Shown: positions 21,420 through 39,806, counted from the stretch's first letter. The stretch: DNA of 64,000 bases from Candidatus Latescibacterota bacterium (GCA_965248435.1 OZ252100.1:4128001-4192000), one strand, 5' to 3'. Notes: generated from the letters alone by a model not told the origin. Made by a program: numbers and translations.

Positions 21420-21452
21420 AAAACCCCCTTTCCAACAGGAAAGGGGGTTTTT
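21420..21452. terminator. Bidirectional terminator between convergent genes
   Basis: aaaaccccctttcc-aaca-ggaaagggggtttt. Confidence 0.85.
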
Positions 21453-21530
21453 CGTGGTCCGTGAAATCAAATTCAGATCGAGGGACAACAGTCCAGAGCA
21501 GAATCAATCCTGGTTGCTTTTCCCGTGTGG

Positions 21531-21586
21531 ATTCTCTGCGATCCCTGCTTTCGCAGGGACATGCCTCTGCGTCTCTGCGGTGAGAT
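21531..21586 (-). repeat. CGCAGAG-type repeat containing a CATGTCCC...GGG hairpin; near-identical inverted copy at 57441-57494
   Basis: ctctgcgatccctgctttcgcagggacatgcctctgcgtc matches the reverse complement of 57451-57490. Confidence 0.75.
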
Positions 21587-21601
21587 TTCTCATTTTATCA
21601 T

Positions 21602-22462: not shown

Positions 22463-22537
22463 CGCGTATCTCGTATTTCGTGCCAGGTTCTTCGGGAATC
22501 GGAAAACAGAGCAGTGAGAAGAAGCGAGTGCTGGGGA

Positions 22538-22620
22538 AATGGAGTAATGGAGTAATGGAGTAATGGGGAGACAGTGCTAAGATTCTGGTTTTCCCAATAC
22601 TCCAGTACTGCAATACTCCA
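22538..22620. repeat. Inverted pair of 8-mer tandem repeats (AATGGAGT)n / (CAATACTC)n
   Basis: Direct reading. Confidence 0.75.
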
Positions 22621-22638
22621 GAATCACAGAAATGCCCA

Positions 22639-24225: not shown

Positions 24226-24240
24226 TGCGTCCTCTTTGAT

Positions 24241-24266
24241 CGAGATGCGGCACCGCCGCGTCTCTA
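24241..24266 (-). repeat. GTAG-type REP palindrome
   Basis: GTAGagacgcggcggtgccgcatctc on the minus strand. Confidence 0.65.
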
Positions 24267-24273
24267 CTGGTTG

Positions 24274-25860
24274 TTATTGATATCTGATGAATAATTCGAG
24301 GCCGACGAGGTCGACAGGGCCGGTCATGCCGGAAGCGCGTGGTCCCAGGGTGAGCTCGACTGGGTTTTCACCGAGGGTCAGGTTCGGTTCGACCAGGAGG
24401 TCGGTAAAGACCGTGAACACAAGGTATTCCATACCGCGTATTCGTTCAACCAACCCGTCCCACTCTCTGGGCCGATCGGGTCTTACTTGCGTAGGATTTC
24501 GTAGCTCATTGTCGTTCAGCTTCACGCTCAGCTCGTCCTGATGGGGATCGAAGTCGGTGAGGGAGAGGCGGAGTCGGATCTCCTTGAGCGAGCCGTCCGC
24601 CGCGGCCTTCTTGACGTCGTCGCCGATGATGAGCTTCGCGGAGCTGGACTTGCCCTCCTCCAGCCGGACGGGGAGGAGGCCCGGAACGGAGCCGTTCAAC
24701 ATGACCAGAGACCGCGTGGAGTGGTTCATCACGAAATGCTTGTCCTTACCGGCGAGGAGCTGGGGGTCTCCCATCTCTCTCATTGCTTGGTCGCAATGGG
24801 GGAATCTGAGGTTGAAGGTGTAGATGCCGTCCGGGCCACAGCTGTGGTAGTAATTCGCCAGTGCCCGGTCCCTCTCCAGCCCCCGCTGACGGTACATGCA
24901 CGGATAGATCTGCGTATCGTACCTGTGGGCTAGCTCGACCCAGTCTTTTACAGGAAGGGCGTAGTCGTTGAAGGAGCCACTCACGACGAGGATATCGACC
25001 AGGCCCTCCTTCAGCCAGCCCTCCACGTCCAGGCCCATCCTCAGGTTGATTTCGGGAGAGTCGAAGACCCGGGGGACCAGCATGAGGGGTTTGCCCTTCT
25101 CCGACTCGATCTCCAGCATCCGGCTTCGGGCCTTGCGCATAAAGTCGGTCATCATGTCGATGTGCTGCTGTTCGACCGGCTTGTGATCCAGTGTTGGCTT
25201 GAACAGGATCGGCCAGCGCCAGAAGTCCAGCTCGATGCCATCCACGTCGTAGTTGGAACAGACCTCTTCGACGATGGCGAGCCTTCGCTCTCGAACCTCG
25301 TTGTGTGCGAAGTCCAGCGCGGACCAGCAGTGGGTTAACAGCGCGTTGTGGTCACCGTTCACCCGCGAGCCTCGTTCGCCCAGGCAGAGATGCATGTTCT
25401 CGCGCTTCCACTTGCTGTAGGTGCTCGGTCTCCAGGAGTCCTGGATCATGTTCATGCGGAGGCTGCCGAAGACCTCCCGGTCGTGCTCGCGGCAGTATTC
25501 GACGACAGTCTGCAGCGGATCGGTGCCCCGGTCCAGGAACGACTTGATGTTGTGCCCGATCGTCGCGATATGCTCGATGTCCTGTTTGGGCGCTCCGGGA
25601 TACGGCTCCATGCCGGCGATCTCGGCGATCTTGGTGTTGTAGTCGACCTGCTCGATGCGGGTGAAGCTCCAGGAGACGGTGTCGATCTCGGGGATCCGGA
25701 CGGCGAAGGAGAGGGGATCGGCCAGAAGCCCCTCGGGGGTGTCGGTGGTATGCTCCACGCCGTCCGCGTCGACGGCCGTCTTCGCGGGGAGCGTCCCGGA
25801 GTCGTCGTTCATGATGATACGGCGACGCCGCTTTCTGGCTTTTTCCCTATCGATGCTCAT
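24274..25860 (-). CDS. GHL10-like protein, array copy 2
   Basis: Same motifs; closest to copy 1. Confidence 0.75.
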   Translation of the reverse strand: MSIDREKARKRRRRIIMNDDSGTLPAKTAVDADGVEHTTDTPEGLLADPLSFAVRIPEIDTVSWSFTRIEQVDYNTKIAEIAGMEPYPGAPKQDIEHIATIGHNIKSFLDRGTDPLQTVVEYCREHDREVFGSLRMNMIQDSWRPSTYSKWKRENMHLCLGERGSRVNGDHNALLTHCWSALDFAHNEVRERRLAIVEEVCSNYDVDGIELDFWRWPILFKPTLDHKPVEQQHIDMMTDFMRKARSRMLEIESEKGKPLMLVPRVFDSPEINLRMGLDVEGWLKEGLVDILVVSGSFNDYALPVKDWVELAHRYDTQIYPCMYRQRGLERDRALANYYHSCGPDGIYTFNLRFPHCDQAMREMGDPQLLAGKDKHFVMNHSTRSLVMLNGSVPGLLPVRLEEGKSSSAKLIIGDDVKKAAADGSLKEIRLRLSLTDFDPHQDELSVKLNDNELRNPTQVRPDRPREWDGLVERIRGMEYLVFTVFTDLLVEPNLTLGENPVELTLGPRASGMTGPVDLVGLELFIRYQ

Positions 25861-25885
25861 TGCGTAATTCTCCTTGCGATTTCGT

Positions 25886-26046
25886 GGACCCCTCCCTCGG
25901 TCCCTCCCCTAAAGGGGAGGGAAGGTAGATGCGGTCCTTGTGGCCAAAACGAAGTCCTGACCTTGCGCTTGGGCGGTGAATCGTAGAGAAATGAGTTAAT
26001 CACTTGTGTTCGTTCCCCCCTTCCCTTTAGGGAAGGGGGGTTAGGT
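25886..26046. repeat. ~160-bp REPIN/MITE-like element with palindromic ends
   Basis: ccctcccctaaaggggaggg ... cccccttccctttagggaaggggggttagg; homologous to 29377-29532. Confidence 0.7.
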
Positions 26047-26059
26047 CTGCAATCGGCAT

Positions 26060-27631
26060 CTACTGGTAACGAATGAACAGCTCCAGCCCAACGAGGTCCA
26101 CCGTGCCGGTGAGGCCGGAGGGGCGTGAGCCGAGTGTAAGCTCGACCTGGTTTTCGCCCTTCCTTACGGTCGGTTCCATACGGATGTCGGAGTAGAGGGT
26201 GAAGACCTTGAATTGCAGACTGCGGATGTTCTCCTCTATACCCTGCCACTCCCGACCCCTTCTGTGCGCGAAGGGATCTTCGGGCTGCACAGTCAGAGGG
26301 TTTTTCAATCGGCGGTTGTTGAGCGTGACCGCGAGCTCGTCCTGACGCGGGTCGAAGTTCGTGAGGGAGAGACGGAGGTTGAGCTCTGAGAGGCTGTCTT
26401 CATCGGCGGCTTTCTCTACGTCGTCGCCGATCAGGAGTTTCGCCGCGGCCGGGCTCCCTTCTACCAGCCGGACTGGAAGCAAGCCGGGTGCGGCGCCGTT
26501 CTGAAGGCAGGTGGAGGTGATCGAGTGGTTCATCACGTATTGCTTCGGCTCGCGCGAGATGGTTTCCGCATCTCCGAGTGTTCGAAGGAAATCGAGGTCC
26601 TTTGGGAGCCGGAGGTTGAAGGTGTAGATGCCGTCCGCGCCGCAGCTCCAGTAGTAGGCCGCGACGGCCAGGTCGTGCTCCAGGCCGTTCCTGCCGTAGA
26701 GGCAGGCATACAGCGGCACGTCGTGTTTGTGGGCGAGCTCGACCCAGTCCGAGACGGGGAAGGAGAAGTGGTTGAAGCTCCCCCCGACGACAAGGATATC
26801 GAGCAGGCCCTCTTCGAGCCAGGTCTCGACGTCCAGGCCCATCCTCCGGTTGATCTCGAGCGTGTCGAAGACACGCGGTGCGAGGATGAGGGGCCGGTCC
26901 CGCCCGGCATCGATCTCCATCATCCGTGCGCGGGTCTTTCGCATGAAGTCGGTCGTCAGGTCGATGTGACGCTGTTCGACCGGCTCCCGGTTCAGCGTCG
27001 GCTTGTAGAGGATCGGCCAGCGCCAGAAGTCCAGCTCCATCCCGTCGACTTCATACCGGCTGCAGATGTCGTCGATCATCGCGAAACGGTAGTCGCGCAC
27101 CGCTTCGTGCTCCCAGTCGAGCGCGGACCAGCAGAGGCGAAGGTCTTTGTTGTCGCTGTTCTCCCAGTCGCCCCTTTTGCCCAGACAGTATTCGGGGTGC
27201 TCGCGCTTGAACCGGGAGGCGAAGTAGGGCCTGAACGAGTCCTGGATCATGTTCATGCGGCAGCTCGCGAAGACCTCCCGGCCGACGCCGTGACCCCAGT
27301 CGCAGATAAACTTGATCGGGTCCGTCCCCCTTTCCATCATCGCTCTGATGATGGTCCGCTCCGTTTTCCAGGTCTTCTGGTCCGCCACCGGCATGTTCGG
27401 CGCAGGCTCTTCGCCGGCGATGTGATCGACCCTCGTGTCGTAGAGCAGGTGGTCCGCGCCGACGATGAAACTCCACCAGATGCTGTCCGTCTGGGTGTCC
27501 AGGATGTGGCCGAGCCGGGCCTCCAGAAAGCCCTGCTCGGTCACCGCTTCCGGCTCCCACAAAACGCAGCCGTCGTCGTTAACGATGACGCGTCTGGGGC
27601 GATGTATGGCTTTTTGTCTATCGATACTCAC
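26060..27631 (-). CDS. GHL10-like protein, array copy 3
   Basis: Same motifs. Confidence 0.75.
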   Translation of the reverse strand: MSIDRQKAIHRPRRVIVNDDGCVLWEPEAVTEQGFLEARLGHILDTQTDSIWWSFIVGADHLLYDTRVDHIAGEEPAPNMPVADQKTWKTERTIIRAMMERGTDPIKFICDWGHGVGREVFASCRMNMIQDSFRPYFASRFKREHPEYCLGKRGDWENSDNKDLRLCWSALDWEHEAVRDYRFAMIDDICSRYEVDGMELDFWRWPILYKPTLNREPVEQRHIDLTTDFMRKTRARMMEIDAGRDRPLILAPRVFDTLEINRRMGLDVETWLEEGLLDILVVGGSFNHFSFPVSDWVELAHKHDVPLYACLYGRNGLEHDLAVAAYYWSCGADGIYTFNLRLPKDLDFLRTLGDAETISREPKQYVMNHSITSTCLQNGAAPGLLPVRLVEGSPAAAKLLIGDDVEKAADEDSLSELNLRLSLTNFDPRQDELAVTLNNRRLKNPLTVQPEDPFAHRRGREWQGIEENIRSLQFKVFTLYSDIRMEPTVRKGENQVELTLGSRPSGLTGTVDLVGLELFIRYQ

Positions 27632-27663
27632 TGTGTGATCCTCCTCGCGTTATGGTGGATCGG

Positions 27664-27749
27664 ACCTAACCCCCCGCCCCCCTTCCCTAAAGGGAAGGGG
27701 GAGAAGAGGTAGGATGCATCACCGTAGGGGCACGGCGTGCCGTGCCCGG
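27664..27749. repeat. CCCCTTCCC-GGGAAGGGG palindrome plus GTAG-type REP
   Basis: cctaaccccccgcccccttccctaaagggaagggg; GTAGgggcacggcgtgccgtgccc. Confidence 0.7.
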
Positions 27750-27757
27750 ATCTAGCG

Positions 27758-29329
27758 TCATTGATAGCGAATGAATAACTCAAGGCCCACGAGGTCGACC
27801 GGTTCTTCGAGGCCGGAAGCGCGCGGTCCGAGGGTGAGCTCGACCTGGTTTTCACCCTTCGTCACGGTCGGTTCCATTCGGATGTCGGCGTAGAGCGTGA
27901 AGACCTTGAATTGCAAACTGCAGATGCTGCCCTCGATGCCCTGCCACTCCCGACCCCTTCTGTGCGCGAATGGATCTTCGGGCTGAACCGTCAGGGGGCG
28001 CTTCAAATGGCGGCCGTTGAGCGTGACGGCCAGCTCGTCCTGGTCCGGATCGAAGTTCGTGAGGGAGAGACGAAGGTTGAGCTCTGAGAGGCTGTCTTCA
28101 TCGGCGGCCTTCTCTGCGTCGTCGCCGACCAGGAGCCTTGCGGATGCCGGGCTGCCTTCTTCCAGGCGCACTGGAAGAAGGCCGGGTGCGGCGCCGTTCT
28201 GGAGGCAGGTGCCGGTGTTCGAGTGGTTCATCACATAGCGCTTCGGCTTGTGCGAGATCTTTTCGGCATCTCCGAGTTCGTGGATGAAGTCGAGGTCCCG
28301 CGGGAACCTGAGGTTGAAGGTGTAGATGCCGTCCGCGCCGCAGCTCCAGTAGTAGGACGCGACGGCCAGGTCGTGCTCCAGGCCGTTCCTTCCATAGAGA
28401 CATGCATACAGCGGCACGTCGTGCTTGTGTGCGAGCTCGACCCAGTCCGAGACGGGGAAGGAGAAGTGGTTGTAGCTCCCGCCGATGACTAAGATGTCGA
28501 GCAGGCCCTCTTCGAGCCAGGTCTCTACGTCCAGGCCCATCCTCCGGTTGATCTCGAGGGTATCGAAGACTCGCGGAGCGAGGATCAGGGGTTGGTCACG
28601 CTCGGCATCGATCTCCATCATCCGCTTGCGGGTCTTTCGCATGAAGTCGGTCATCATGTCGATGTGCTTCTGCTCGACGGGGTCGTGATACATCGTCGGT
28701 TTGAACAGGATGGGCCAGCGCCAGAAGTCCAGCTCCATACCGTCTACCGGGTAGCCGCTGCAGATCTCGTCGATCAGCGCGAAACGTTGGTCGCGCACCG
28801 CCTCGTGTTCCCAGTCGAGTGCGGACCAGCAGAGCTGCTCGTCTGGATTGTCGCTGTTCTCTCCCATCCCGCGCTCGCCCAGGCAGTACTCGGGGTGATC
28901 GCGCTTCCACTGCGTGTTGAAGTTGGGCCGCCAGGAGTCCTGGACCATGTTCATTCTGAAACTGGCGAACACCTCGCGACCGACGCCGTGGCCCCAGTCG
29001 CAGATGAACTTCAGGGGGTCCGTTCCCCTGTCAATGAAGGACTTGATGTTGTTCCATACCGTCGCCCACCCTTCCAGGTCCTTCCTGGGGGAGCCGGGGA
29101 CCGGGATCTTGCCCGCGACATCGCCCACCTTCGTGTCGTATCCCAGGCAGTCTGAGTTCATGATGAAGCTCCACCAGATGCTGTCTATCTGGCTGTCCAG
29201 GATGTGGCCGAAACAGGCATCGAGAAACCCCGCCTCGGTGTGGGCGTTCGGGTCTTGCAGTTCGTAGGCGTCGTCGTTCAGGATGATGCGGCGACGTTTG
29301 TGGATGGCTTCTTGTCTGTTGATGCTCAT
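27758..29329 (-). CDS. GHL10-like protein, array copy 4
   Basis: Same motifs. Confidence 0.75.
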   Translation of the reverse strand: MSINRQEAIHKRRRIILNDDAYELQDPNAHTEAGFLDACFGHILDSQIDSIWWSFIMNSDCLGYDTKVGDVAGKIPVPGSPRKDLEGWATVWNNIKSFIDRGTDPLKFICDWGHGVGREVFASFRMNMVQDSWRPNFNTQWKRDHPEYCLGERGMGENSDNPDEQLCWSALDWEHEAVRDQRFALIDEICSGYPVDGMELDFWRWPILFKPTMYHDPVEQKHIDMMTDFMRKTRKRMMEIDAERDQPLILAPRVFDTLEINRRMGLDVETWLEEGLLDILVIGGSYNHFSFPVSDWVELAHKHDVPLYACLYGRNGLEHDLAVASYYWSCGADGIYTFNLRFPRDLDFIHELGDAEKISHKPKRYVMNHSNTGTCLQNGAAPGLLPVRLEEGSPASARLLVGDDAEKAADEDSLSELNLRLSLTNFDPDQDELAVTLNGRHLKRPLTVQPEDPFAHRRGREWQGIEGSICSLQFKVFTLYADIRMEPTVTKGENQVELTLGPRASGLEEPVDLVGLELFIRYQ

Positions 29330-29376
29330 TGCATGGTCCCCCTTGTGATTACGTCGTTCGTCGTTCGTGAATCGTA

Positions 29377-29532
29377 GACCCCTTCCTCGGTCCCTCCCCT
29401 AAAGGGGAGGGAAGATAGTTGCAATCCTCGATGCCAAAACGAAGTCCTATTGTTTCACGTATACTCGTTCCCCCCTTCCCTTAGGGAAGCATGTCCCGAG
29501 CCAGACGAGGGAGGGGGCCAGGGGGGTTAGGT
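29377..29532. repeat. REPIN/MITE-like element with nested 22-nt insertion (29490-29511)
   Basis: Homologous to 25886-26046, including the internal gccaaaacgaagtcct. Confidence 0.7.
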
Positions 29533-31110
29533 CTATTGATAGCGTACCCACAACTCCAGACCGGAGAGGTCGACCGGGCCGGTGAGGCCGGAGGCCCGAT
29601 CACCCAGGGTCAGCTCGACCTTGTTCTCACCCTTTTCCATGAAGGGTTCCAGTTTCACGTCTGTGTATAGCGTAAAGACCTGGTACTCCACGCTTCGGAG
29701 GCTGTGACCTCCCCACTCGCTCGAGCTCACCCCTTTTTGTCTCTCCGCCCAGGGGTTTTCTGGGGTCACGGGCTGTGGGTGCTTCAGTTCACGGCCGTTG
29801 AGCTTCACGGCGAGCGTGTCCTGCCGGGGGTCGAAGTTGGTCAGGGAGAGACGGAGTTTGAGCAGGGCCAGCGCGTCGTCGGCAGCGGCCTTCTGCACGT
29901 CGTCTCCGATGATGAGTGCTGCCGACTTCGGTGATCCTTTTTCCAGACGCACCGGCAGGATGCCCGGCGCGCATCCGTTGCCGAGGCAGCCTCCAACGTA
30001 GCTGGGATTCATGACATAGTGCTTGTCTCTTCGCGCGATCAGATCGGGGTCTCCGATCTCCTTGATCGGTTCGAGGTGCCCGGGGAGTCTGAGGTTGAAG
30101 GTATAGATGCCGTCGGCACCGCAGTTGAAGAAGTGGGAACAGACGGCGCGGTCGAACTCCACTCCGGTGGAGCGGTAGAGGCAGGGGTAGAGCGGCACGT
30201 CATACTTGTGGGCCAGTTTGGCCCAATCGGCGACGGGGATGGTGTAGTAGGTGTAGTGACCGCCCACCGCGAGGACGTCCAGGAGCCCCTCTTTCAGCCA
30301 GGTCTCCACGTCCAGGCCCATTCGGAGGTTGATCTCCAGCGTGTCGAAGACCCGGGGCGCGATCACGATGGGACGTCCCCGTTCGGCCTCGATCTCCGTC
30401 ACGCGCTCACGGGTCTTGCGCATGAAGTCCGTCATCATGTCGATGTGCTTCTGCTCAGCGGGCTGTTGATACATCGTCGGTTTGAACAGGATGGGCCAGC
30501 GCCAGAAGTCAAGCTCCATCCCGTCGACGTCGTATCGGCTGCAGATGTCGTCGATAATCGCGAGGCGCTGGTCCCGCACGGCCTGGTGTTCCCAGTCGAG
30601 CGCGGACCAGCAGGTGCGCTCGTCGTCATTGTCGCTGTTCGTCCCCATCCCGCGCTCGCCCAGACAGTACTCGGGGTGCTCGCGTTTGAACCGGGAGGCG
30701 AAGTAGGGCCTCCAGGAGTCCTGGATCATGTTCATGCGGAAGCTCGCGAAGACCTCCCTGCCGACCCCGTGACCCCAGTCCGTGACGAACTTGAGGGGGT
30801 CCGTCCCTCTTTCCATCATGGTCTTGATCGTGTTCCACATCGCGCCCCAGGTCTTCTGGTCCGCCTTCGGCATTCCCGGGACCTGAACCTTGCCGGCGAT
30901 TTCGTCTACCCTCGTGTCGTAGAGGAGGTTGTCCGCGCCGACGATGAAACTCCACCAGATGCTGTCCACCTGCGTATCCAGGATGTGGCCGAGTCGGCTG
31001 TCCAGAAACGCTTCCTCGGTATACGTGTTCGGGTCGAACAGGACGCCGCCATCGTCGTTGAAAATGATGCGGCGTTTCCTGTGGATGGCTTTATGTCTAT
31101 CGATGCTCAC
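29533..31110 (-). CDS. GHL10-like protein, array copy 5
   Basis: GTG start at 31110 after GGAGG gives (M)SIDRHK like the paralogs. Confidence 0.75.
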   Translation of the reverse strand: MSIDRHKAIHRKRRIIFNDDGGVLFDPNTYTEEAFLDSRLGHILDTQVDSIWWSFIVGADNLLYDTRVDEIAGKVQVPGMPKADQKTWGAMWNTIKTMMERGTDPLKFVTDWGHGVGREVFASFRMNMIQDSWRPYFASRFKREHPEYCLGERGMGTNSDNDDERTCWSALDWEHQAVRDQRLAIIDDICSRYDVDGMELDFWRWPILFKPTMYQQPAEQKHIDMMTDFMRKTRERVTEIEAERGRPIVIAPRVFDTLEINLRMGLDVETWLKEGLLDVLAVGGHYTYYTIPVADWAKLAHKYDVPLYPCLYRSTGVEFDRAVCSHFFNCGADGIYTFNLRLPGHLEPIKEIGDPDLIARRDKHYVMNPSYVGGCLGNGCAPGILPVRLEKGSPKSAALIIGDDVQKAAADDALALLKLRLSLTNFDPRQDTLAVKLNGRELKHPQPVTPENPWAERQKGVSSSEWGGHSLRSVEYQVFTLYTDVKLEPFMEKGENKVELTLGDRASGLTGPVDLSGLELWVRYQ

Positions 31111-31130
31111 TTCGTTACCCTCCTTAGAAA

Positions 31131-31230
31131 CGGTTTCGAGTTTCGGGTTTCGAGTTGAAGACAAAACAGTAAGCGAGTTCAAAGCTCATTCGATATGAAC
31201 TAGAAACTAGAGACTGGAAACCAGAAACTA
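31131..31230. repeat. Inverted pair of heptamer tandem repeats (GTTTCGA / AACTAGA type)
   Basis: gtttcgagtttcgggtttcgag ... aactagaaactagagactggaaaccagaaac. Confidence 0.65.
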
Positions 31231-32793
31231 TTGATAGCTGATAAACAGCTCTAGGCCTACGATGTCGACCGGGCCCGTCAGGCCGGAAGCGCGCGGACGC
31301 AGGGAGACTTCGACGCTGTTTTCGCCGACTTCCAGGTTCGGCTCGATCGGAACGTCTGTGTAGAGCGTGAAGACCGCGAATTCCACGCTTCGGATTCCCT
31401 CTTCGAGCCAGTCGTGCGTGTCCTTGCCCCGTTTGGCCCAGGGGTTCTCGGGCCGCACCTGCTGGGGGTGCCTGAGCTCGCGGCCGTTGAGCTTCACGGC
31501 GAGCGTGTCCTGGCGGGGATCGAAGTTCGTCAGGGAGAGGCGAAGTCTGATCAGAGACAGCGCGTCGTCGGCCGCGGCCTTCCGCACGTCGTCCCCGATG
31601 ATAAGCTTCGCCGTCTCCGGCGTTCCTTCGGTCAGCCGCACCGGCAGGAGGCCCGGCGCGCACCCGATACCGAGGGCGCCTCCTTCGTAGCTGGGATTCA
31701 TGACGTAGTGCTTGTCTCTTCGCGCGATCAGATCGGGGTCTCCGATCTCCTTGATCGGTTCGAGGTGCTCGGGAAGCCTCAGGTTGAAGGAGTAGATGCC
31801 GTCGGCACCGGAGTTGAAGAAGTGGGAGGCGACGGCCCTGTCGAATTCCACACCGGTGGATCGATACAGACACGGGTAGAAGGGCACGTCGTACTTGTGA
31901 GCCAGCTCAGCCCATTCGGAGACCGGGATGGAGTAGTAGGTGTAATGGCCGCCCACGATGAGGAGGTCGAGGAGCCCCTCTTCCAGCCAGGTCTCCACGT
32001 CCAGACCCAGCCAGCGATTGATCTCGAGGGTGTCGAAGACCCGCGGCGCAATCACGAAGGGCCGTCCCAGCTCGGCTTCGATCGCCGTCACCCGCTCGCG
32101 GGTCTTGCGCATGAAGTCGGTCATCGCGTCGAGATGCCGCTGTTCGACCGGCTTCCGGTCCAGGGTCGGTTTGAAGTAGGCGGGCCACCGCCAGAAGTCC
32201 AGCTCTATGCCGTCGATGTCGTAGTCTCTGCAGAGCTCTTCGATGATCGCGAGGCGCTGGTCGTGCACCGCCTCGTGCTCCCAGTCGAGCGCGGACCACA
32301 TGACCCTGGTCAGATCGTCGTCGGATTGGCCCATGCCGCGTTCGCCCAGACACAGCTCTGGATGCTCCCGCTTCCATTTGGACCAGAACTGCGGCCGCCA
32401 CGAGTCCTTGGGCATGTTCATGCGGTAGCTGGGGAATACCTCCAGGCTGTGCTTGCGACAGAATTCGATGACCACGCCCAGTGGATCCGTCCCCCGGTCG
32501 ATAAACTCCTTGATGTTGCGCCACGTCAGCGCCATGCCTTCCAGATCGGGCTTTGGGGCCCCGGGAACCGGATGCTGGCCGTAGATCTCGCCCGCCTTCG
32601 TATCGTAACGGTAGACTTCTGCGCCGGAAACGCTCCACCAGACGCTGTCCACCTGTGTTCCGGCCACGTGGTTTAGCCGCTCCGCGAGAAACCCCTCCGG
32701 CGTGCTCGATGTTTCGCGGTGAAGGTATCCCGCGTCGTCGTTGAAGATGATGCGACGCTGGCGGTGTATGGCTTGATGTCTATCGATGCTCAT
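31228..32793 (-). CDS. GHL10-like protein, array copy 6
   Basis: Same motifs. Confidence 0.75.
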   Translation of the reverse strand: MSIDRHQAIHRQRRIIFNDDAGYLHRETSSTPEGFLAERLNHVAGTQVDSVWWSVSGAEVYRYDTKAGEIYGQHPVPGAPKPDLEGMALTWRNIKEFIDRGTDPLGVVIEFCRKHSLEVFPSYRMNMPKDSWRPQFWSKWKREHPELCLGERGMGQSDDDLTRVMWSALDWEHEAVHDQRLAIIEELCRDYDIDGIELDFWRWPAYFKPTLDRKPVEQRHLDAMTDFMRKTRERVTAIEAELGRPFVIAPRVFDTLEINRWLGLDVETWLEEGLLDLLIVGGHYTYYSIPVSEWAELAHKYDVPFYPCLYRSTGVEFDRAVASHFFNSGADGIYSFNLRLPEHLEPIKEIGDPDLIARRDKHYVMNPSYEGGALGIGCAPGLLPVRLTEGTPETAKLIIGDDVRKAAADDALSLIRLRLSLTNFDPRQDTLAVKLNGRELRHPQQVRPENPWAKRGKDTHDWLEEGIRSVEFAVFTLYTDVPIEPNLEVGENSVEVSLRPRASGLTGPVDIVGLELFISYQ

Positions 32794-32835
32794 GGCGTGA
32801 TTCTCTTAGCCGTGATGATAAAAGAAGCTATGCCT

Positions 32836-32922
32836 GACCACAGACCACGGACCACAGACGGCTAAGACATGGGACATCACGCTATTCAATCCTGCGGTCC
32901 GCGGTCTGTTGTCCGCCGTCTG
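32836..32922. repeat. Inverted pair of GACCACA/GACCGCG-type heptamer repeats
   Basis: gaccacagaccacggaccacagacggc ... ctgcggtccgcggtctgttgtccgccgtc. Confidence 0.7.
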
Positions 32923-32926
32923 CATT

Positions 32927-34498
32927 TCATTGATAGCTGATGAAGAGCTCCAGGCCGGTGAGATCCACGGGTCCTGCGAGACCCGATGCACGAGCGCCCA
33001 GGGTGAGCTCGACCTTGTTTTCGCCCTTTGTCAGGCTGGGTTCGACAGGAACGTCAGTGAAGAGTCTAAACACCGTGAATTCGAGACTCCCGACGTTGCT
33101 CCCCCTCCACTCACGGGTTTCCACCCCTCTTTTTGCCCAGGGATTTTCAGTCGGTACGGGCTGAGAGCGCCGTGGGACAAGACCGTTGACTTTAGCGGTC
33201 AGCTCGTCCTGATAGGGATTGAAGTTCGTCAACGACAGCCGAAGTTTGATTTCGGCCAGACTGTCTTCGGACCAAGCTTGCTTGACGTCGTCGCCGATCA
33301 CGAGCTTTGCCGTCGCATGCGATCCTTCCTCCAACCGCACTGGCAGGAGACCGGGAGCACATCCGTTCCGGAGACAGACGGAATTGACGGAGTGATTCAT
33401 CACGTAATGCTTGTCTCTCCGCGCGATCAGCTCGGGGTCTCCGATTTCCTTGATGGGCTCCAGGTGCCGGGGAAGTCTCAGGTTGAAGGTGTAGATGCCG
33501 TCCGCACCGGAACTGAAGTAGTGCGTCGCGACGGCCCTGTCGAATTCCACACCGGTGGAGCGATACAAACAGGGGTAGAAGGGCACATCATATTTGTGAG
33601 CCAGATCGGCCCATTCGGAGACGGGGAAAGAGTAGTAGGTATAGCTCCCTCCCACGACCAGGACGTCAAGGAGGCCTTCTTCTAGCCAGGTCTCCACGTC
33701 CAGGCCCATCCTGCGGTTGATCTCTGTCGTGTCGAAGACGCGGGGCGCAATCACGATGGGCCGTCCCCGTTCGGCTTCGATCTCCGTCACCCGCTCGCGG
33801 GTCTTGCGCATGAAGTCGGTCACCATGTCGATGTGCTTCTGCTCAACGGGCTCGTGATAAAGGGTTGGTTTGAACAGGATCGGCCAGCGCCAGAAGTCCA
33901 GCTCCATGCCGTCGACCTCGTACCGGCTGCAGACGTCGTCGATCAGAGACAGGCGCTGGTCACGCACGGCCTCGTGTTCCCAATCCAATGCCGACCAGCA
34001 GAGTCGTTCCTCTTCATTGTCGCTGTTCTCTCCCATTCCACGCTCGCCCAGGCAGTACTCGGGGTGCTCCCGCTTCCACCTGGAGTGGAAGTCGCGCCGC
34101 CAGGAGTCCTGGATCATGTTGATTCGGAAGCTCGCGAAGACTTCCCTGCCGACACCGTGACCCCAGTCGACGACGAACTTCAAGGGATCGGTCCCTCTGG
34201 CCATCATGGCTTTGACGTTGTCGTACTGGATATTCAGCCTTTCGAGCTCGCTCTTCGGCGCTCCGGGATAGGGTGCACTGCCCACAATATCGCCTACGCG
34301 GGTGTCGTAGAGGAGGAGGTCCGCATTCTTGTTGAAGCTCCACCAGATACTGTCAACCTGGGTGTCCAGGATGTGGCCGAGCCGGCTGTCGAGAAATCCC
34401 TCCTCGGTGTGCGCCTTCGGGTCGTGAACGACGCCGGCATCGTCGTTGAAGATGATGCGACGTCGCCTGTGTATGGCTTCGTGTCTATCGATGCTCAT
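32927..34498 (-). CDS. GHL10-like protein, array copy 7
   Basis: Same motifs. Confidence 0.75.
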   Translation of the reverse strand: MSIDRHEAIHRRRRIIFNDDAGVVHDPKAHTEEGFLDSRLGHILDTQVDSIWWSFNKNADLLLYDTRVGDIVGSAPYPGAPKSELERLNIQYDNVKAMMARGTDPLKFVVDWGHGVGREVFASFRINMIQDSWRRDFHSRWKREHPEYCLGERGMGENSDNEEERLCWSALDWEHEAVRDQRLSLIDDVCSRYEVDGMELDFWRWPILFKPTLYHEPVEQKHIDMVTDFMRKTRERVTEIEAERGRPIVIAPRVFDTTEINRRMGLDVETWLEEGLLDVLVVGGSYTYYSFPVSEWADLAHKYDVPFYPCLYRSTGVEFDRAVATHYFSSGADGIYTFNLRLPRHLEPIKEIGDPELIARRDKHYVMNHSVNSVCLRNGCAPGLLPVRLEEGSHATAKLVIGDDVKQAWSEDSLAEIKLRLSLTNFNPYQDELTAKVNGLVPRRSQPVPTENPWAKRGVETREWRGSNVGSLEFTVFRLFTDVPVEPSLTKGENKVELTLGARASGLAGPVDLTGLELFISYQ

Positions 34499-34592
34499 GG
34501 AGTGATCCTTCTAGTGATATCGTGGATCGTCGTTCGTGAATCGAGACCTAACCCCCCGGCCCCCGGCTGCCATATCAAAATCGGTTGTGCTT

Positions 34593-34674
34593 GACCGCAG
34601 ACTACGGACGGCTAGAAGACCTGAAATATCGAGTTATTCATCCTGCGGTCCACTGTCCGCCGTTCGCCGTCCGC
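34593..34674. repeat. Inverted pair of GACCGCA-type heptamer repeats
   Basis: gaccgcagactacggacggc ... ctgcggtccactgtccgccgttcgccgtccgc. Confidence 0.65.
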
Positions 34675-34676
34675 AT

Positions 34677-36245
34677 CTATCGATACCGGATGAAGAGCTC
34701 GACGCCGACAAGATCGACCGGTCCGGTCAACCCGGAGGTGCGCGGTCTCAGGGTTACATCGATGCTGTTTTCGCCCTTTGTCACGGTTGGTTCAACAGGT
34801 ATGTCGGTGTAGATCGTAAACACCGTGAATTCGAGACTGCGGACCCGATCCTCGATGCCCTTCCACTCGGGAGCCGAGCCCCTCACGGTCCAGGGATTCT
34901 CAGGTTCTACGGGTCGAGGTCGCCGCAGCTCACGGCCATTGAGTACGGCAGTCACTTCGTCCTGATACGGGTCGAAGTTGGTCAGCGATAGACGGAGTCT
35001 CAGCTCCATCAGGGCATCTTCGTCCGCGGCCGCCTGCACGTCGTCTCCGATGAGGAGCTTCGCCGTAGTGGGCCTGTCCTCCTCCATCCGAACGGGCAGG
35101 AGACCCGGCGCGCAGCCGTTCCGGAGGCACACGGACTTCGACGAATGGTTCATCACGTAGTGCTTGTTTCTTCTGTCGATGAGCTGAGGGTCTCCGATCT
35201 CCTTGATGGGCGGGACGTGCCTGGGAAGTTTGAAGTTGAAGGTGTAGACACCATCCGAGCCGCAGCTGAAGTGGTAGGACGTGACTGCCCGGTCCTGCTC
35301 GACCGTCGTGGACCGATACAGGCAGACGTAGAGCGGCACGTCGTATCTGTGGGCCAGTTCGGCCCATTCGGAAACGGAGATGGAGTAGTAGGTGTAGTCG
35401 CCGCCCACGACCAGGATGTCCAGCAGGCCCTCTTCCAGCCAGGTCTCCACGTCCAGGCCCATGCGACGATTGACCTCGAGTGTGTCGAAGACCCGCGGGG
35501 CAAGCAGCAGGGGCCGCCCCCGCTCGGACTCGATCTCCATCATCCGGCTGCGTACGCGGCGCATGAAGTCGGTCATCACGTCTAGATGCCGCTGCTCGAC
35601 CGGCTTCTGCTCCAGGGTCGGCTTGAAGAGGATGGGCCAGCGCCAGAAGTCCAGCTCCATGCCGTCCACATCGTAGCCGGAGCATACCTCCTCGATCACC
35701 GCCAGGCGCTGATCGCGCACGGCCTCGTGTTCCCAGTCGAGTGCAGACCAGCAAAGGTGCAGGTCATCGTTGTCGCTGTTTACGTAGCTGCCCCGCTCAC
35801 CGAGGCAGAACTCGGGATGCTCGCGCTTCCATTTCGTCCTGAAGCTCCGCTGCCAGGTGTCCTGTATCATGTTCATTCTGTAGCTGGCGAACATCTCCAG
35901 GCCGTGCTTCCGGCAGAAGTCGAGGACGACGCGAAGGGTGTCGGTGTCCCGGTCGAGGAGTGCCTTGATGTTGCGCCAGTGGACGGTCTCTTCGCCGGGC
36001 TTCCGAACACCGGGCCACGGACCGCTGTCGGCAATCTCACCGACCTTCGTGTCGTAGAGAAGGACGTCGGCGCCGCCCACGAAGCTGAGCCAGACACTAT
36101 CGACCTGAGTGTCGATCACGTGGTCGAGCCGGTGGGAAAGGTAGGCCTCTGGTGTGGTCGATCTTTCCTGACCGATCGCCTCATTGTCGTCGTTAAAGAT
36201 GATGCGACGGCGCCTGTGGATGGCTTCGTGTCTATCGATGCTCAC
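34677..36245 (-). CDS. GHL10-like protein, array copy 8
   Basis: Same motifs. Confidence 0.75.
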   Translation of the reverse strand: MSIDRHEAIHRRRRIIFNDDNEAIGQERSTTPEAYLSHRLDHVIDTQVDSVWLSFVGGADVLLYDTKVGEIADSGPWPGVRKPGEETVHWRNIKALLDRDTDTLRVVLDFCRKHGLEMFASYRMNMIQDTWQRSFRTKWKREHPEFCLGERGSYVNSDNDDLHLCWSALDWEHEAVRDQRLAVIEEVCSGYDVDGMELDFWRWPILFKPTLEQKPVEQRHLDVMTDFMRRVRSRMMEIESERGRPLLLAPRVFDTLEVNRRMGLDVETWLEEGLLDILVVGGDYTYYSISVSEWAELAHRYDVPLYVCLYRSTTVEQDRAVTSYHFSCGSDGVYTFNFKLPRHVPPIKEIGDPQLIDRRNKHYVMNHSSKSVCLRNGCAPGLLPVRMEEDRPTTAKLLIGDDVQAAADEDALMELRLRLSLTNFDPYQDEVTAVLNGRELRRPRPVEPENPWTVRGSAPEWKGIEDRVRSLEFTVFTIYTDIPVEPTVTKGENSIDVTLRPRTSGLTGPVDLVGVELFIRYR

Positions 36246-36302
36246 GGCGTGATCCTGCTATGGAAGAATGTATCTCGTCCTAGGAAACTCGGGGACCACA
36301 TT

Positions 36303-37838
36303 TTATCGATACTTGATGAATAACTCGACGCGTACGACGTCGACGGGCTTGTGCGCGTAGGGCGACCGGCGCACGAGCGTTACTTCCACCGCGTTGTGGC
36401 CCTGTGATACCGGAGGCTCGCGACGGACATCGGTGTGTATCGTGTAGACAGGGAACTGCAACACGCAGTCATTTTCTACGATCTCGGTCTTCCTCGGGCG
36501 CTTCATCTTTCGCCCGTTGAGCTTGACCGTGACCTCGTCTTCCTCGGGATCGAAGTGGGATAGCGACAGGTGCACGTCGAGGGTGAACAGCGTATCATTC
36601 AACGCGGCCTGCTGCACGTCGTCACCGATGACGAAGGAGACGGTCCGCGGCTCGCCTTCCGCGAGGCGCGCTGGCAGCGGACTCGGTGCGCACCCGCGCG
36701 CCCAGATCGGGTCGTCCTCCTCAGCCTTGAAGAGTCCGGCGAACACGTAGTGCTTTTCCATGGTCGCGATCAGGTCGGGTTCGCCGATCTCGCTGATCAT
36801 CTGCAGGTCCTTCGGCATCTTCACGTTGAAGGTGTAGACGCCCGCCGCGCCCTGCGTGCGAAAATTCGTCGCCACGGCGCGGTCCTGTTCGGGACTCGTG
36901 GACCGGTACTTGCACGGATAGACCGGCACGTCGTGCGGCCGCGCCAGCTCGACCCAGTCGGATACCGGGATTCGGTTCTCACCGTAGGATCCGCCGACGA
37001 CAAGGAGGTCGATCAGCCCCTCATTCAACCAGGTTTCGACGTCTATGCCGGCACGGAGGTTGGTCTCGATCGTCTCGAACACGCGCGGCGCCAGGAGCAG
37101 GGGGTGGCCCTTATCCTCCTCGATCGCCGTCATGCGCGCACGAAGCTGCCGCATGAAGTCGTTCATGATATCGATATGCCGCTGCTCGACCGGCAGGTTG
37201 TCGAGGTTGGGCTTGAAGAGCATCGGCCATCGCCAGAAGTCCAGCTCCACGCCGTCCACGTCGTAGTTCGCGCAGATCTCCTCCATCACGGCCAGACGCC
37301 GGTCGCGAACGGCCTGATGCTCGTAGTCCAGGGCGGACCAGAACCATTTGCGCGGGTCATCATGCTCGCCGTACTCGTAGCTGCCACGAACACCGAGGCA
37401 GAGCTCGGGATGGTCGCGCTTCCATTGCGTCCTGCAGTTTGGCCACCAGGAGTCCTGGATCATGTTCGTTCGGAAGCTGGCGAGCACCTCCAGGTCGTGC
37501 TTTCTGCAGAAATCGATGACCAGCTGGAGGGGATCGGTTCCCTGTTCGATAAGCATCCTGAGGTTGCGTCCGATCACGGACTCCTCGCCCGGCTTCCGAA
37601 CGCCGGGCCACTCCCCGCTGTCGGCGACCTCGCCGACCTTCGTGTTGTAGAGGAGATTGTCGGAGCTGGTCATGATGCTGATCCAGACGCTGTCCACGTG
37701 CGTGTCGATCACGTGGTCGAGCCGGTAGGAATAATAGCCCTCGGGCGTCGTGGCTGTCTCCTGGTGGATGGGGGCGTTGTCGTCGTTGAAGATGACGCGA
37801 CGAGGTCTATGTATGGCTTTCTTTCGGTCGATGCTCAC
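36303..37838 (-). CDS. GHL10-like protein, array copy 9 (most divergent C-terminal half)
   Basis: Same core motifs, DGVELDFWRWP. Confidence 0.75.
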   Translation of the reverse strand: MSIDRKKAIHRPRRVIFNDDNAPIHQETATTPEGYYSYRLDHVIDTHVDSVWISIMTSSDNLLYNTKVGEVADSGEWPGVRKPGEESVIGRNLRMLIEQGTDPLQLVIDFCRKHDLEVLASFRTNMIQDSWWPNCRTQWKRDHPELCLGVRGSYEYGEHDDPRKWFWSALDYEHQAVRDRRLAVMEEICANYDVDGVELDFWRWPMLFKPNLDNLPVEQRHIDIMNDFMRQLRARMTAIEEDKGHPLLLAPRVFETIETNLRAGIDVETWLNEGLIDLLVVGGSYGENRIPVSDWVELARPHDVPVYPCKYRSTSPEQDRAVATNFRTQGAAGVYTFNVKMPKDLQMISEIGEPDLIATMEKHYVFAGLFKAEEDDPIWARGCAPSPLPARLAEGEPRTVSFVIGDDVQQAALNDTLFTLDVHLSLSHFDPEEDEVTVKLNGRKMKRPRKTEIVENDCVLQFPVYTIHTDVRREPPVSQGHNAVEVTLVRRSPYAHKPVDVVRVELFIKYR

Positions 37839-37885
37839 TGCGTGATCCTCCTAGCCGTGATGATAAGTAAAGGAGAGCTATGTTC

Positions 37886-37961
37886 GACCGCAGACGACGG
37901 ACCGCGGACCGCCAAACCCGAATCACGTTATTCATCTCGCGGTCTGCCGTCCGCCGTCGGC
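37886..37961. repeat. Inverted pair of GACCGCA-type heptamer repeats
   Basis: gaccgcagacgacggaccgcggaccgc ... gcggtctgccgtccgccgtcggc. Confidence 0.7.
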
Positions 37962-37963
37962 AT

Positions 37964-39532
37964 CTATTGATAGCGAATGAATAGCTCCAGCCCGACGAGG
38001 TCCACCGGGCCGGTGAAGCCGGAGACGCGCGGACCCAGATTCAGGTCGATGCTGTTTTCTCCCTTCGTCACGTTGGGTTCAATCGAGATGTCAGACATGA
38101 TGTTGAACAGCGGGAAATCCAGACACCGGACGCGGTCCTCTATCCCGGACCATTCTCCCCCTGCCTTGCCCCGCTGAGCCCAGGGATTCTCGGTCGACAC
38201 GGGCCGGGGCCGACGAAGCTCGCGACCGTTGACCCTGACGGTGACCTCGTCCCGGTTCGGGTCGAAGTTCGTGAGGGAGAGGCGAAGCCGGAGTTCCGAC
38301 AGGGCGCCTTCGGAGGCGGCCTCCTGTACGTCATCACTGTTGATGAGCGTAGCCTGTGTCTTAGAACTCTCCTCGAGCCGCACCGGCAGGAGGCCCGGCG
38401 CGCATCCGTTACCCAGAACGCCCCCTCCCTGTGCGTGATCCATCACGTAATGTTTGTCCTTTCGTGCGATCAGGTCGAGGTCGCCGATTTCTTTAACGGT
38501 CTGGAGGGCCCCCGGGAGCCTGACGTTGAAGGTGTAGATGCCGTCAGCGCCGCAGTCGTAATAATGAGTGGCGAGGGCGCGGTCGAATTCCACGCCGGTA
38601 GACCGATACATGCAGGGGTAGAGGGGCACGTCGTACTTGCGGGCAAGGTCGGACCACTCCCGGAGGGGGATCGAGTAGTTGGTGTAGTGACCCCCGACGA
38701 CGAGGATGTCGAGGAGACCTTCTTCGAGCCAGGTCTCGACGTCCAGGCCCAGCCTGCGATTGATCTCCAGCGTATCGAACAGGTGGGGGGCGAGCAACAG
38801 GGGTCGTCCACGCCCTGACTCGACTTCCGTCACCATACTACGTGCGCGGCGCATGAAGTCTGTCATCGCGTCGAGATGCCGCTGCTCGACCGGCTTCTGC
38901 ACCAGTGTGGGCTTGAAGTAGGCGGGCCACCGCCAGAAGTCCAGCTCCACGCCGTCGACATCGTACTGGCAGAGTTCCTCGAGGATTCCGAACCGATAGT
39001 CGCGCACGGCCTCGTGCTCGTAGTCGAGTGCGGACCAGCAGTTCCGCAGGTCGTCATTGTCGCTGTTCTCGTATGCGCCCCTTTCGCCAAGACAATACTC
39101 GGGGTGCTCTCGCTTGAACCGGGTGCCGAAGGCGGGCCTCCACGAGTCCTGGATCATGTTTAAGCGGTAGCTGGCGAACACTTCTCTGCCAACGCCGTGG
39201 CCCCAGTCGACGACGAACTTGAGCGGGTCGCCGCCCCGGTCCATGAAGGCCTTGATGTTTCGCCAGACCGTGGCGAATCTCTTCAGGTCAGCCTTGGGCG
39301 CGCCTGGAATGGGATCTTTTCCGCCCACGTCACCGACCTTGCTGTCGAACTTGAGGTGGTCCGCGCCGGTCATGATCGACCACCAGATGCTGTCGATCTG
39401 TGTATCCAGGATGTGGCCGAGCGGCGAGGCGAGCAGCCCTGCCTCGGTATGCCCGCTCGGGTCATTCATAGTTGCGGAGTCGTCGTTGAGGATGATGCGA
39501 CGTCTGCGGTGTATGGCTTCTCGTCTATCCAA
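37964..39532 (-). CDS. GHL10-like protein, array copy 10 (first transcribed; TTG start)
   Basis: AAGGA leader like copy 7; (M)DRREAIHRRRRIILNDD. Confidence 0.72.
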   Translation of the reverse strand: MDRREAIHRRRRIILNDDSATMNDPSGHTEAGLLASPLGHILDTQIDSIWWSIMTGADHLKFDSKVGDVGGKDPIPGAPKADLKRFATVWRNIKAFMDRGGDPLKFVVDWGHGVGREVFASYRLNMIQDSWRPAFGTRFKREHPEYCLGERGAYENSDNDDLRNCWSALDYEHEAVRDYRFGILEELCQYDVDGVELDFWRWPAYFKPTLVQKPVEQRHLDAMTDFMRRARSMVTEVESGRGRPLLLAPHLFDTLEINRRLGLDVETWLEEGLLDILVVGGHYTNYSIPLREWSDLARKYDVPLYPCMYRSTGVEFDRALATHYYDCGADGIYTFNVRLPGALQTVKEIGDLDLIARKDKHYVMDHAQGGGVLGNGCAPGLLPVRLEESSKTQATLINSDDVQEAASEGALSELRLRLSLTNFDPNRDEVTVRVNGRELRRPRPVSTENPWAQRGKAGGEWSGIEDRVRCLDFPLFNIMSDISIEPNVTKGENSIDLNLGPRVSGFTGPVDLVGLELFIRYQ

Positions 39533-39587
39533 GATTACTTGATCCTTCTGGCAATACCGTTGATCGTCGTTCGTCGTTCGTCGATCG

Positions 39588-39628
39588 CAAACAAAACGGG
39601 GTCGTGTCGCTGGGACACAACCCCTCGT
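39588..39628 (-). terminator. Terminator-like hairpin upstream of the array
   Basis: Minus strand ggggttgtgtc-ccagc-gacacgacccc-gTTTTGTTT. Confidence 0.5.
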
Positions 39629-39806
39629 TCTTGTATGAAAGGCGGGACTCACATCCGGGATTTTGAGTCGACAGTACCACCTTCCCCTCCCTTACGAATC
39701 GACACAAGGCGCCCTATTTCTGCGCCAAGATAGGGGGTTGGCCGGGTGGAATCAACTCAAATCGGGGAGCGTCAGAAGGGTTATATTAATCATGTAGGAG
39801 GTCAAA

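Follow-up and report, generated by a model that had tools for sequence, protein, structure and literature searches.

A 64,000-nucleotide stretch of DNA from a Candidatus Latescibacterota bacterium (GCA_965248435.1 OZ252100.1:4128001-4192000; hereafter the window) holds a tandem array of ten GH156-like paralogs. The ten open reading frames (ORFs), which like all array features given below are on the minus strand, fill positions 22639-39652. Each has 511-528 aligned codons, is intact, and encodes a protein of ~523 amino acids. The copies are numbered c1 to c10 by increasing window position, so that the direction of transcription is from c10 towards c1. The array spacers are 48-203 nt long, each of the nine internal ones ends with a Shine-Dalgarno-like motif, and overall nucleotide identity between copies is 60-81%. 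The original prediction held that these genes are segmental mosaics, in which repeated recombination at a conserved core (ELDFWRWP-GLDVETWL) shuffles barrel halves in the manner of antigen genes. Here we find that the array does not fit one tree and that the mosaic is real, but only two of the ten copies, c3 and c6, are robust half-gene chimeras. With a probability of about 85%, we attribute them to ancient, slow unequal crossover or gene conversion between paralogs, that is, to ordinary gene-family recombination and not to programmed diversification.

Conflicting trees and two half-gene chimeras

The shared motifs that first drew attention to the array can be seen in the protein alignment, and the DNA, measured as nucleotide identity in 150-nt windows, bears them out. 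c3 (26060-27631) is nearest to c5 over codons 26-200 (74-86%, vs. 63-85% to c4) and nearest to c4 over codons 226-543 (81-95%, vs. 54-76% to c5), as had been proposed. The identity between c5 and c6 (31228-32793) is 81-91% over codons 301-450, but 58-69% over codons 1-175. For c8 and c9 it is 73-81% over codons 1-175 and 53-69% thereafter.

Tests for recombination agree with this block structure. The pairwise homoplasy index (PHI) gave z = −12.8 (0/1000 permutations; 716 informative sites), and the signal persisted with third positions only (z = −5.1, 0/1000). Maximum-likelihood trees of the N-half (codons 1-175) and the C-half (codons 251-543) conflict with high support. By the approximately unbiased (AU) test, the N-half alignment rejected the C-half tree (p = 5e-47), and the C-half alignment rejected the N-half tree (p = 1.5e-39). 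The constraint tests given below used a 15-sequence alignment of c1-c10 with five copies, g1-g5, from a second genome of the same genus (G001; the genome carrying the window is G000). With these copies, the N-half tree contains (c3,(c5,g3)) and (c6,(c8,(c9,g2))), with bootstraps of 94 and 96, and the C-half trees contain (c3,c4,g4) and ((c5,g3),c6), with bootstraps of 95-100 and 97. A scan resembling the genetic algorithm for recombination detection (GARD), which used FastTree likelihoods for all 595 intervals on a 45-nt grid followed by dynamic programming, placed the best single breakpoint at codon 240, with an improvement of 458 in the corrected Akaike information criterion (AICc). The Bayesian information criterion (BIC) prefers this single breakpoint. 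Because branch lengths and model parameters were free for each segment, the extra breakpoints favored by AICc are taken as unproven.

Synonymous sites track the same blocks as the protein pattern. As Nei-Gojobori p-distances (bootstrap confidence intervals in brackets), synonymous divergence (pS) between c3 and c4 is 0.33 [0.27-0.40] in the C-half and 0.51 [0.42-0.61] in the N-half. The order is reversed for c3 and c5, at 0.57 [0.50-0.64] in the C-half and 0.38 [0.29-0.47] in the N-half, while c5 and c6 differ by 0.40 [0.33-0.47] in the C-half and 0.56 [0.46-0.65] in the N-half. Conflicting segment trees and block-wise synonymous sites were among the checks that the original prediction had named, and the array passes both.

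For c3, an N-half of the c5/g3 lineage is joined to a C-half of the c4/g4 lineage, and both parents are thereby identified. For the N-half, the AU test ruled against placing c3 with c4/g4 (p = 0.018); for the C-half, it ruled against placing c3 with c5/g3 (p = 3e-5). A maximum chi-square (MaxChi) triplet gave chi2 = 100.6 (0/2000). The junction maps to 27032-27043 (alignment codons 209-212; own residues 197-200), in barrel strand β4, where ELDFWRWP begins. With third positions only, the estimate shifts to 27101-27124. Relative to c5, the c3 N-half has 22 unique residues vs. 7 when c7 is the outgroup (chi2 7.8), and 18 vs. 12 when c4 is the outgroup, which is not significant. For c6, the N-half is unrelated to c5 and the C-half is of the c5/g3 lineage: c6 with c5/g3 was rejected in the N-half (p = 7e-5), as was c6 with c8/c9/g2 in the C-half (p = 1.7e-5). 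Its junction lies at 32104-32136 (alignment codons 234-244; own residues 220-230), in the helix after β4. A parent is identified for the c6 C-half only; the N-half is distantly tied to c8/c9, as their sister.

The original prediction also counted c5 (29533-31110; aligned GTG start at 31110, ORF open to 31182) as a mosaic of the c3 N-half and the c6 C-half. The sharing with c6 stands, and the direction is reversed. c5 and g3 are 77-91% identical in 20/20 windows, and g3 is the best match or at most 4 points from the best everywhere. c5 is therefore the parental type (C-lineage) and not a chimera, and its c3-like N-half and c6-like C-half are the ancestral pattern. c4 (27758-29329), the parental D-lineage, is the ortholog of g4. 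The best match of g4 is c4 in 13/20 windows, g3 in 3 core windows and c3 in 4 C-half windows; in the 7 windows where g4 prefers g3 or c3, c4 trails by 0-6 points. Because g3 is collinear with c5 and g4 with c4, c3 and c6 are the recombinants.

Could such blocks arise with no recombination at all, if evolutionary rates varied along the gene and paralogs under similar selection converged in protein sequence? Rate differences do account for c8/c9 (see below), they may account for c7, and MaxChi can be misled by rate shifts. However, the c3 and c6 topologies conflict both ways, with AU p values from 0.018 to 1.7e-5. Moreover, third positions alone reject single-lineage placements in the C-half (c3, p = 0.0007; c6, p = 0.005), PHI at third positions is 0/1000, and the C-half pS intervals of c3-c4 and c3-c5 do not overlap. 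We regard an origin without recombination as very improbable. Even less credible is that the chimeras are assembly artefacts in which repeats were mis-joined. Tandem repeats are a known source of misassembly, but these copies are at most 81% identical overall and share no exact run longer than 63 nt, which leaves little to confuse an assembler, and the window lies inside a contig of 5,656,476 bases. In addition, an independent metagenome protein (P0006) is built like c3, and genes built like c5 are found in the independent genome G001 and in a metagenome contig (L035).

A donor for the odd halves was also sought outside the array. The genome has 28 family matches, of which the 18 outside the array are 26-37% identical to c7; at no more than 37% identity, none is a donor. 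Mosaics were also looked for in the other arrays of the family, with protein trees of the N-half and the barrel part of the C-half that took in 27 matches, all but the one carrying an internal TAG; for the 17 copies outside the array, the differences between these trees have weak support (bootstrap 59-69%). Many of the 18 outside members sit in further tandem clusters (e.g. C1:3690963-3695539, 3783488-3791277, 3800726-3814354 and 4934846-4939416).

Other copies, core tracts and surroundings

For the remaining copies, half-gene exchange is not supported. The shared N-half of c8 (34677-36245) and c9 (36303-37838) had been read as recombination. The N-halves are indeed alike, but holding c8, c9 and g2 together in the C-half costs 1.7 log-likelihood units and is not rejected (AU p = 0.33). 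By the relative-rate test, the C-half has 65 unique residues in c9 (60 in g2) vs. 17 (21) in c8 (chi2 28 and 19), so that a C-half evolving 3-4 times faster in c9/g2 suffices and recombination is unnecessary; c8 is simply the sister of c9/g2. c9 is the ortholog of g2, whose best match it is in 20/20 windows. In c9 and g2 (G001, L034:10184-11713), the C-half has a very long branch and a deletion in a β-sandwich loop. It is conserved between the two genomes (pS 0.36; nonsynonymous p-distance, pN, 0.10), which points to a diverged but constrained function.

c7 (32927-34498) is a duplicate of the c5 lineage, and its mosaicism is without significant support: keeping it with c5/g3/c6 in codons 376-543 was not rejected (AU p = 0.28). 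c1 (22639-24225) belongs with c2 (24274-25860) and g5 in the E-lineage and has no mosaic signal; its best match is c2 in 19/20 identity windows, and MaxChi of c1 against c2 and g5 is weak (89/2000). c2 is the ortholog of g5 (pS 0.41; best match of g5 in 18/20 windows). c10 (37964-39532), the ortholog of g1, has an uncertain start codon, with the frame open to 39652. A database entry of 522 amino acids (P0007) is 99-100% identical to it.

Shorter exchanges appear in the conserved core. The proposed sharing of WPAYFKPTL between c6 and c10 corresponds to a short tract at 32125-32202 in c6 (alignment codons 212-237, ~75 nt), matching 38861-38938 in c10. Here 20 sites are c10-like vs. 3 c5-like, compared with 129/225 outside (0/300 permutations). 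Trees of the 75-codon core do not settle this tract (bootstrap 51-74%), and in AU tests on the core every alternative position tried for c6 and c3 stayed acceptable at the 0.05 level (lowest p = 0.055). G001 has a core tract of its own, in which the adjacent g3 and g4 resemble one another (codons 172-239; 19/3, 0/300), and g1 has a core tract resembling c8 (codons 220-261; 20/2, 0/300). Every junction and tract falls inside codons 165-295, and mean pairwise identity among the ten copies is highest at codons 211-240 (81%). Thus, repeated recombination between paralogs, with junctions in or next to the ELDFWRWP-GLDVETWL core (codons 209-212 and 234-244; scan optimum, 240), holds as predicted.

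Upstream, the array is flanked by a divergently transcribed gene for a flavin adenine dinucleotide (FAD)-dependent oxidoreductase (39807-41201). A xylose-isomerase-like TIM-barrel gene (21602-22462) lies downstream, followed by LigD and Ku. The stretch just downstream of the array (window 16466-19714 and 19715-22638) takes in Ku and a 775-residue LigD, a non-homologous end-joining pair. The distance from c1 to LigD is ~2.9 kb in G000, including the xylose-isomerase-like gene, vs. ~286 nt in G001. G+C-rich palindromic elements of at least two types occupy the spacers at 25861-26059, 27632-27757, 29330-29532, 32794-32926, 34499-34676 and 37839-37963, as well as 22339-22638. Each element-bearing spacer matches 5 to 76 other genome sites, like dispersed repeats of the repetitive extragenic palindrome (REP) or miniature inverted-repeat transposable element (MITE) kind.

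A GH156-like barrel and the loops on either side of the junction

Domain databases say little about these proteins. Pfam gives only a borderline GHL10 match: against the PF02638 gathering threshold of 27.9 bits, c9 scored 28.6, c1 22.0, c3 20.2 and c5 24.9, so that one of the four copies passes. Precomputed annotation gives PF02638 for c7 and many relatives, and an NCBIfam search of the array proteins returned no match. Relatives in the databases are Planctomycetota proteins, either without a name or annotated as 'family 10 glycosylhydrolase'.

Structure was more informative. c7 was modeled with AlphaFold2 on the basis of 99 homologs (predicted local distance difference test score 94; predicted template-modeling [TM] score 0.93). 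The model has a (β/α)8 barrel with strands at residues 15-18, 48-54, 119-125, 197-201, 249-254, 280-282, 307-312 and 335-338, followed by a β-sandwich at residues 363-523. By far its best Foldseek match was the GH156 inverting exo-sialidase EnvSia156 (6S04, 6S00, 6RZD; E ~1e-35, TM score 0.77-0.82, 19-20% identity). A profile of 99 family members aligned over positions 55-503 with residues 32-489 of 6rzd_A (E = 3.9e-45), and the residue correspondences below come from this hidden Markov model (HMM) alignment.

The published account of EnvSia156 gives Arg129, Arg202 and Asn346 as the carboxylate-binding residues, His134 as the acid and Asp14 as the base (PMC6811678). The counterparts of the three carboxylate binders are R125, R204 and N339, present without exception in 15/15 array proteins and 99/99 family members. 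The same holds (15/15 and 99/99) for D20, which belongs to an NDD motif where β1 ends. It lies at the expected distance from the N-terminus and, judged from sequence, is the likely counterpart of the catalytic base Asp14; the HMM alignment begins only at chain residue 32. The acid position is His in 73/99 members of the wider family, and the 20 nearest relatives of the array have Q, R, K or N there. Around it, the array subfamily reads 'RMNMIQD' (e.g. c7 residues 125-131, ~34106-34126), vs. 'RMNDIHD' in most of the family. Measured against GH156 in CAZy, the proteins thus have the homology over the catalytic domain, the fold and the carboxylate triad, and lack His134. The array proteins share with EnvSia156 the full-length barrel with C-terminal β-sandwich, the aligned Arg/Arg/Asn and, probably, the invariant β1 Asp; they differ in their ~19-20% identity, in the residue at His134 and in the preceding Asp, which aligns with Met. 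They start straight at the β1 region with no hydrophobic leader and, by inspection, look cytoplasmic. Planctomycetes are the phylum with most GH156 sequences (212), according to a GH156 diversity preprint (10.1101/2022.06.28.497753).

Mapped onto this fold, the junctions lie between β4 and β6, the stretch of highest DNA identity: at β4 in c3, in the following helix in c6, at codon 240 in the GARD-like scan, and around c7 residues 270-285 in a metagenome protein discussed below (P0003). A barrel cut between β4 and β6 may stay able to fold. HisA/HisF half-barrels joined near the β4/β5 boundary in laboratory (βα)4 chimeras reportedly do fold. The array chimeras resemble these in joining two (β/α)8 halves near that boundary, and differ in being natural, in arising between paralogs of 65-80% identity, and in a second half that includes the C-terminal domain. 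The position of the junctions may simply follow DNA identity.

The prediction that pocket loops are recombined fares well as geometry, in that the swapped halves carry different loops on the active-site side of the modeled barrel; its functional part is a matter of inference. The counterpart of Trp164, in the +1 subsite of EnvSia156, is in the N-half and varies among copies, the counterpart of Phe203 is the invariant W205, and the counterparts of Phe278 and Trp279 lie in the C-half, in the variable 'GGSFNHF / GGHYTYY' loop after β6. Since residues aligned with the +1 (aglycone) subsite are variable and spread over both halves, a chimera would pair substrate-side loops anew. On the model, an exchange that re-pairs pocket loops is structurally reasonable.

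Age, recurrence and mechanism of exchange

Close homologs (E ≤ 1e-60) were found in only one of 40 related genomes searched, G001: one of 21 in the family besides G000, and none of 19 in a sister family. Its five-copy array is syntenic, between the same FAD-oxidoreductase and LigD genes. Window identity gives the full-length orthologous pairs g1=c10, g2=c9, g3=c5 and g4=c4, and g5 matches c2. The gap between g4 and g5, exactly where c3 would be expected, is 991 nt long (L034:15117-16107), while the other G001 spacers are 71-133 nt. It was searched for the remnant of a c3-type gene: tblastn with the 15 proteins reached E = 0.01 at best, and blastn found nothing below E = 0.2, so that no remnant emerged. 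The gap is filled with dispersed repeats, which have 66 matches in G000.

The orthologs provide a clock. Between G000 and G001, flanking single-copy genes differ by pS 0.40 (FAD oxidoreductase, 464 codons) and 0.43 (LigD, 639 codons), and array orthologs by 0.36-0.47, except the c4-g4 N-half (0.22). With pS 0.33-0.40, the shared blocks of the chimeras thus date to roughly the time of the species split. Tree topology agrees: c3 branches outside (c5,g3) in the N-half (bootstrap 94/89), c6 branches outside (c5,g3) in codons 376-543 (97/99) and c8 branches outside (c9,g2), so these copies predate the split. Most likely, G001 (4.1 Mb vs. 5.7 Mb) has lost five copies. Only the c3-c4 C-half looks somewhat younger (codons 251-375, pS 0.27 vs. 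0.41-0.45 to g4; bootstrap of (c3,c4), 84). Fresh conversion tracts were looked for as long identical runs between paralogs, and none appeared; the longest exact paralog run in the window is 63 nt (c5-c6) and the longest overall, between the orthologs c4 and g4, is 77 nt. All 22 comparisons gave pN/pS of 0.13-0.54, indicating purifying selection on all copies. The low pS of the c4-g4 N-half (~28715-29329 vs. L034:13545-14160; 0.22 [0.15-0.30]) is about half that of the flanking orthologs and contrasts with 0.47 in the C-half of the same gene. It also holds the 77-nt run, the longest in the data set. A later transfer between lineages or an unusual constraint are both possible.

Exchange did not happen only once. 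A metagenome-assembly protein of 523 amino acids, P0003, has an N-part 94% identical to g3 and a C-part 87-92% identical to g4, with the switch near c7 residues 270-285. In protein trees, the sister of its N-half is g3 (bootstrap 96) and that of its C-half is g4 (97). c3 and its ortholog P0006, in contrast, fall outside (c5,g3,P0003) when the N-half is used, and join c4 when the C-half is used. Judged from its sequence, P0003 is probably a separate c5-type/c4-type chimera with a different junction. Either the same combination arose twice with different junctions, or an old c3-type gene was converted by both neighbors separately in each lineage; both would fit. Together with G001's own core tract, P0003 argues that exchange was recurrent; the synonymous divergence of the shared blocks and the lack of long identical runs mark it as slow.

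A third, closer lineage is represented by several database proteins and by two metagenome contigs, L035 and L036, which could themselves be strain chimeras. L035 holds orthologs of c5 and c4 (~90% identity), and L036 holds orthologs of c2 and c1 (93-94%), so that this strain keeps the c5-c4 and c2-c1 adjacencies. P0006 has the c3 architecture, with 84% identity to c3 in the N-half and 97% in the C-terminal part. Thus, the search for chimeras in related strains that the original prediction called for yielded one separate chimera (P0003) and, in the third strain, the c3 architecture once more. Identity along L036 is patchy. For its c1 ortholog, identity is 99-100% in codons 1-125 and 87-99% thereafter; for its c2 ortholog, it is 85-92% in codons 126-325 and then 95-100%, and the middle part of this gene is as near or nearer to G001 g5. 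Either strains have recombined allelically, it seems, or the metagenome contig is chimeric.

We asked whether these observations might reflect ongoing, possibly selected, combinatorial diversification of the antigen type, in which frequent gene conversion in the core generates new barrel-half combinations within populations. Several observations are in its favor: exchange recurs in two lineages (P0003 and the g3-g4 tract), junctions cluster in the core, ortholog identity between strains is patchy (87-100%), and in the third strain, codons 426-475 at the tail of the c4 ortholog match c3 slightly better (91, 88%) than c4 (85, 87%). However, the shared blocks are as diverged as orthologs between species (pS 0.33-0.40), the longest identical paralog run is 63 nt, only 2/10 copies are robust chimeras, and the third strain has the same copies in the same order in the two contigs found, with P0006 keeping the c3 architecture. 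Every copy is full-length with a Shine-Dalgarno-like motif, no silent cassette exists, and the N-termini enter β1 directly without a hydrophobic leader. Cassette antigenic variation (pilE/pilS, vlsE) proceeds by segmental gene conversion between related tandem sequences, and the array resembles it in that respect. Instead of silent partial donors and one expression locus, however, it has ten complete ORFs with conserved active-site residues; nor does it show signs of high frequency, its product does not appear surface-exposed by sequence inspection, and the events are ancient. Of the five pairs that the original prediction quoted, moreover, two (c8/c9, and c5 as a mosaic) are accounted for without recombination or in the opposite direction. 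We consider antigen-like shuffling improbable, and this part of the original prediction did not survive.

A closer comparison is with chimeric paralogs in tandem multigene families, which likewise show homology-dependent exchange, junctions in the most conserved stretch and conflicting segment trees. Concerted evolution is another; long-lasting cases in prokaryotes are reported as rare (PMC6053082). The lineage-specific g3-g4 core tract resembles such local homogenization. Over whole halves, though, paralog pS is about equal to ortholog pS, and paralogs are closer than orthologs only locally (c3-c4 codons 251-375 and the g3-g4 core tract). In contrast to homogenization, the array holds lasting, stable half-gene hybrids that have diverged for about as long as the two species.

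The reading we prefer, ancient and slow exchange between paralogs, would operate as follows. RecA-type homologous recombination between misaligned or neighboring copies would occasionally fuse N- and C-halves from different lineages, over a time span comparable to the split of two species in the genus. c3 would thus combine c5-type β1-β4 with c4-type β5-β8 plus the β-sandwich, and c6 a non-c5 N-half with a c5-type C-half, while smaller conversion tracts would form in the conserved core. The chimeras would then have diverged under purifying selection, the c3 N-half faster than its partner. Because c3, with its C-type N-half and D-type C-half, is situated downstream of its two parents, one crossover does not yield the arrangement, which leaves the collapse of a duplicated C-D pair or the later conversion of a duplicate.

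Several points weigh against this reading. PHI, MaxChi, the tract search and the GARD-like scan are our own implementations, and AICc in the scan improves up to 5-6 breakpoints, which BIC does not support and which may reflect rate heterogeneity. Background pS is 0.5-0.65, near saturation, and N-half signals are weaker: third-position AU in the N-half gives p = 0.078 for c3 (0.035 for c6), and the synonymous signal ties the c6 N-half to no partner (c6-c8 pS 0.59). P0003 was analysed as protein only. The spacers, tried as a marker of conversion vs. crossover, are of no use for separating the two, since they carry genome-wide repeats; the spacer after c3 matches that after c5 (88% over 77 nt), but those after c3, c4 and c5 each match 21-23 places outside the array, and the region after c1 up to 76. 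Finally, the position of the catalytic acid His134 is Gln in 14/15 array proteins and Lys in c6, and the functional sense of the swapped loops rests on alignment to a structure of ~20% identity.

Chimeric paralogs and conversion tracts in tandem families are well known, and as a genome feature the array is otherwise ordinary; what it adds is that the exchanged unit is half a TIM barrel, in a GH156-like subfamily. Two narrow searches, which do not prove absence, turned up no precedent: one of the literature on bacterial glycoside-hydrolase arrays with gene conversion found no such mosaics (the titles listed concerned eukaryotes), and the GH156 diversity preprint has no mention of 'tandem' or 'paralog' (10.1101/2022.06.28.497753). 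The array is thus a clean, datable case in which a tandem enzyme family grows by re-pairing TIM-barrel halves, besides duplication and point mutation. Its parents are identifiable, and the sister genome fixes the direction of events. A bolder and rather unlikely proposal is that c3, c6 and P0003 are natural, selected half-barrel swaps, each creating a new substrate specificity in one step through new pairings of +1-subsite residues (Trp164 counterpart from the N-half, Phe278/Trp279 counterparts from the C-half), with the c5-type/c4-type combination made or kept independently in two lineages. If true, nature would here parallel laboratory (βα)4 chimeragenesis, and Planctomycetota would have a way of enlarging their set of glycan-cleaving enzymes. 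Should the chimeras differ in specificity from both parents, c3, c4, c5 and c6 would form a natural experiment on the modularity of (β/α)8 glycosidases, and would shed light on what this GH156-like subfamily, abundant in Planctomycetota and without the catalytic histidine, does.

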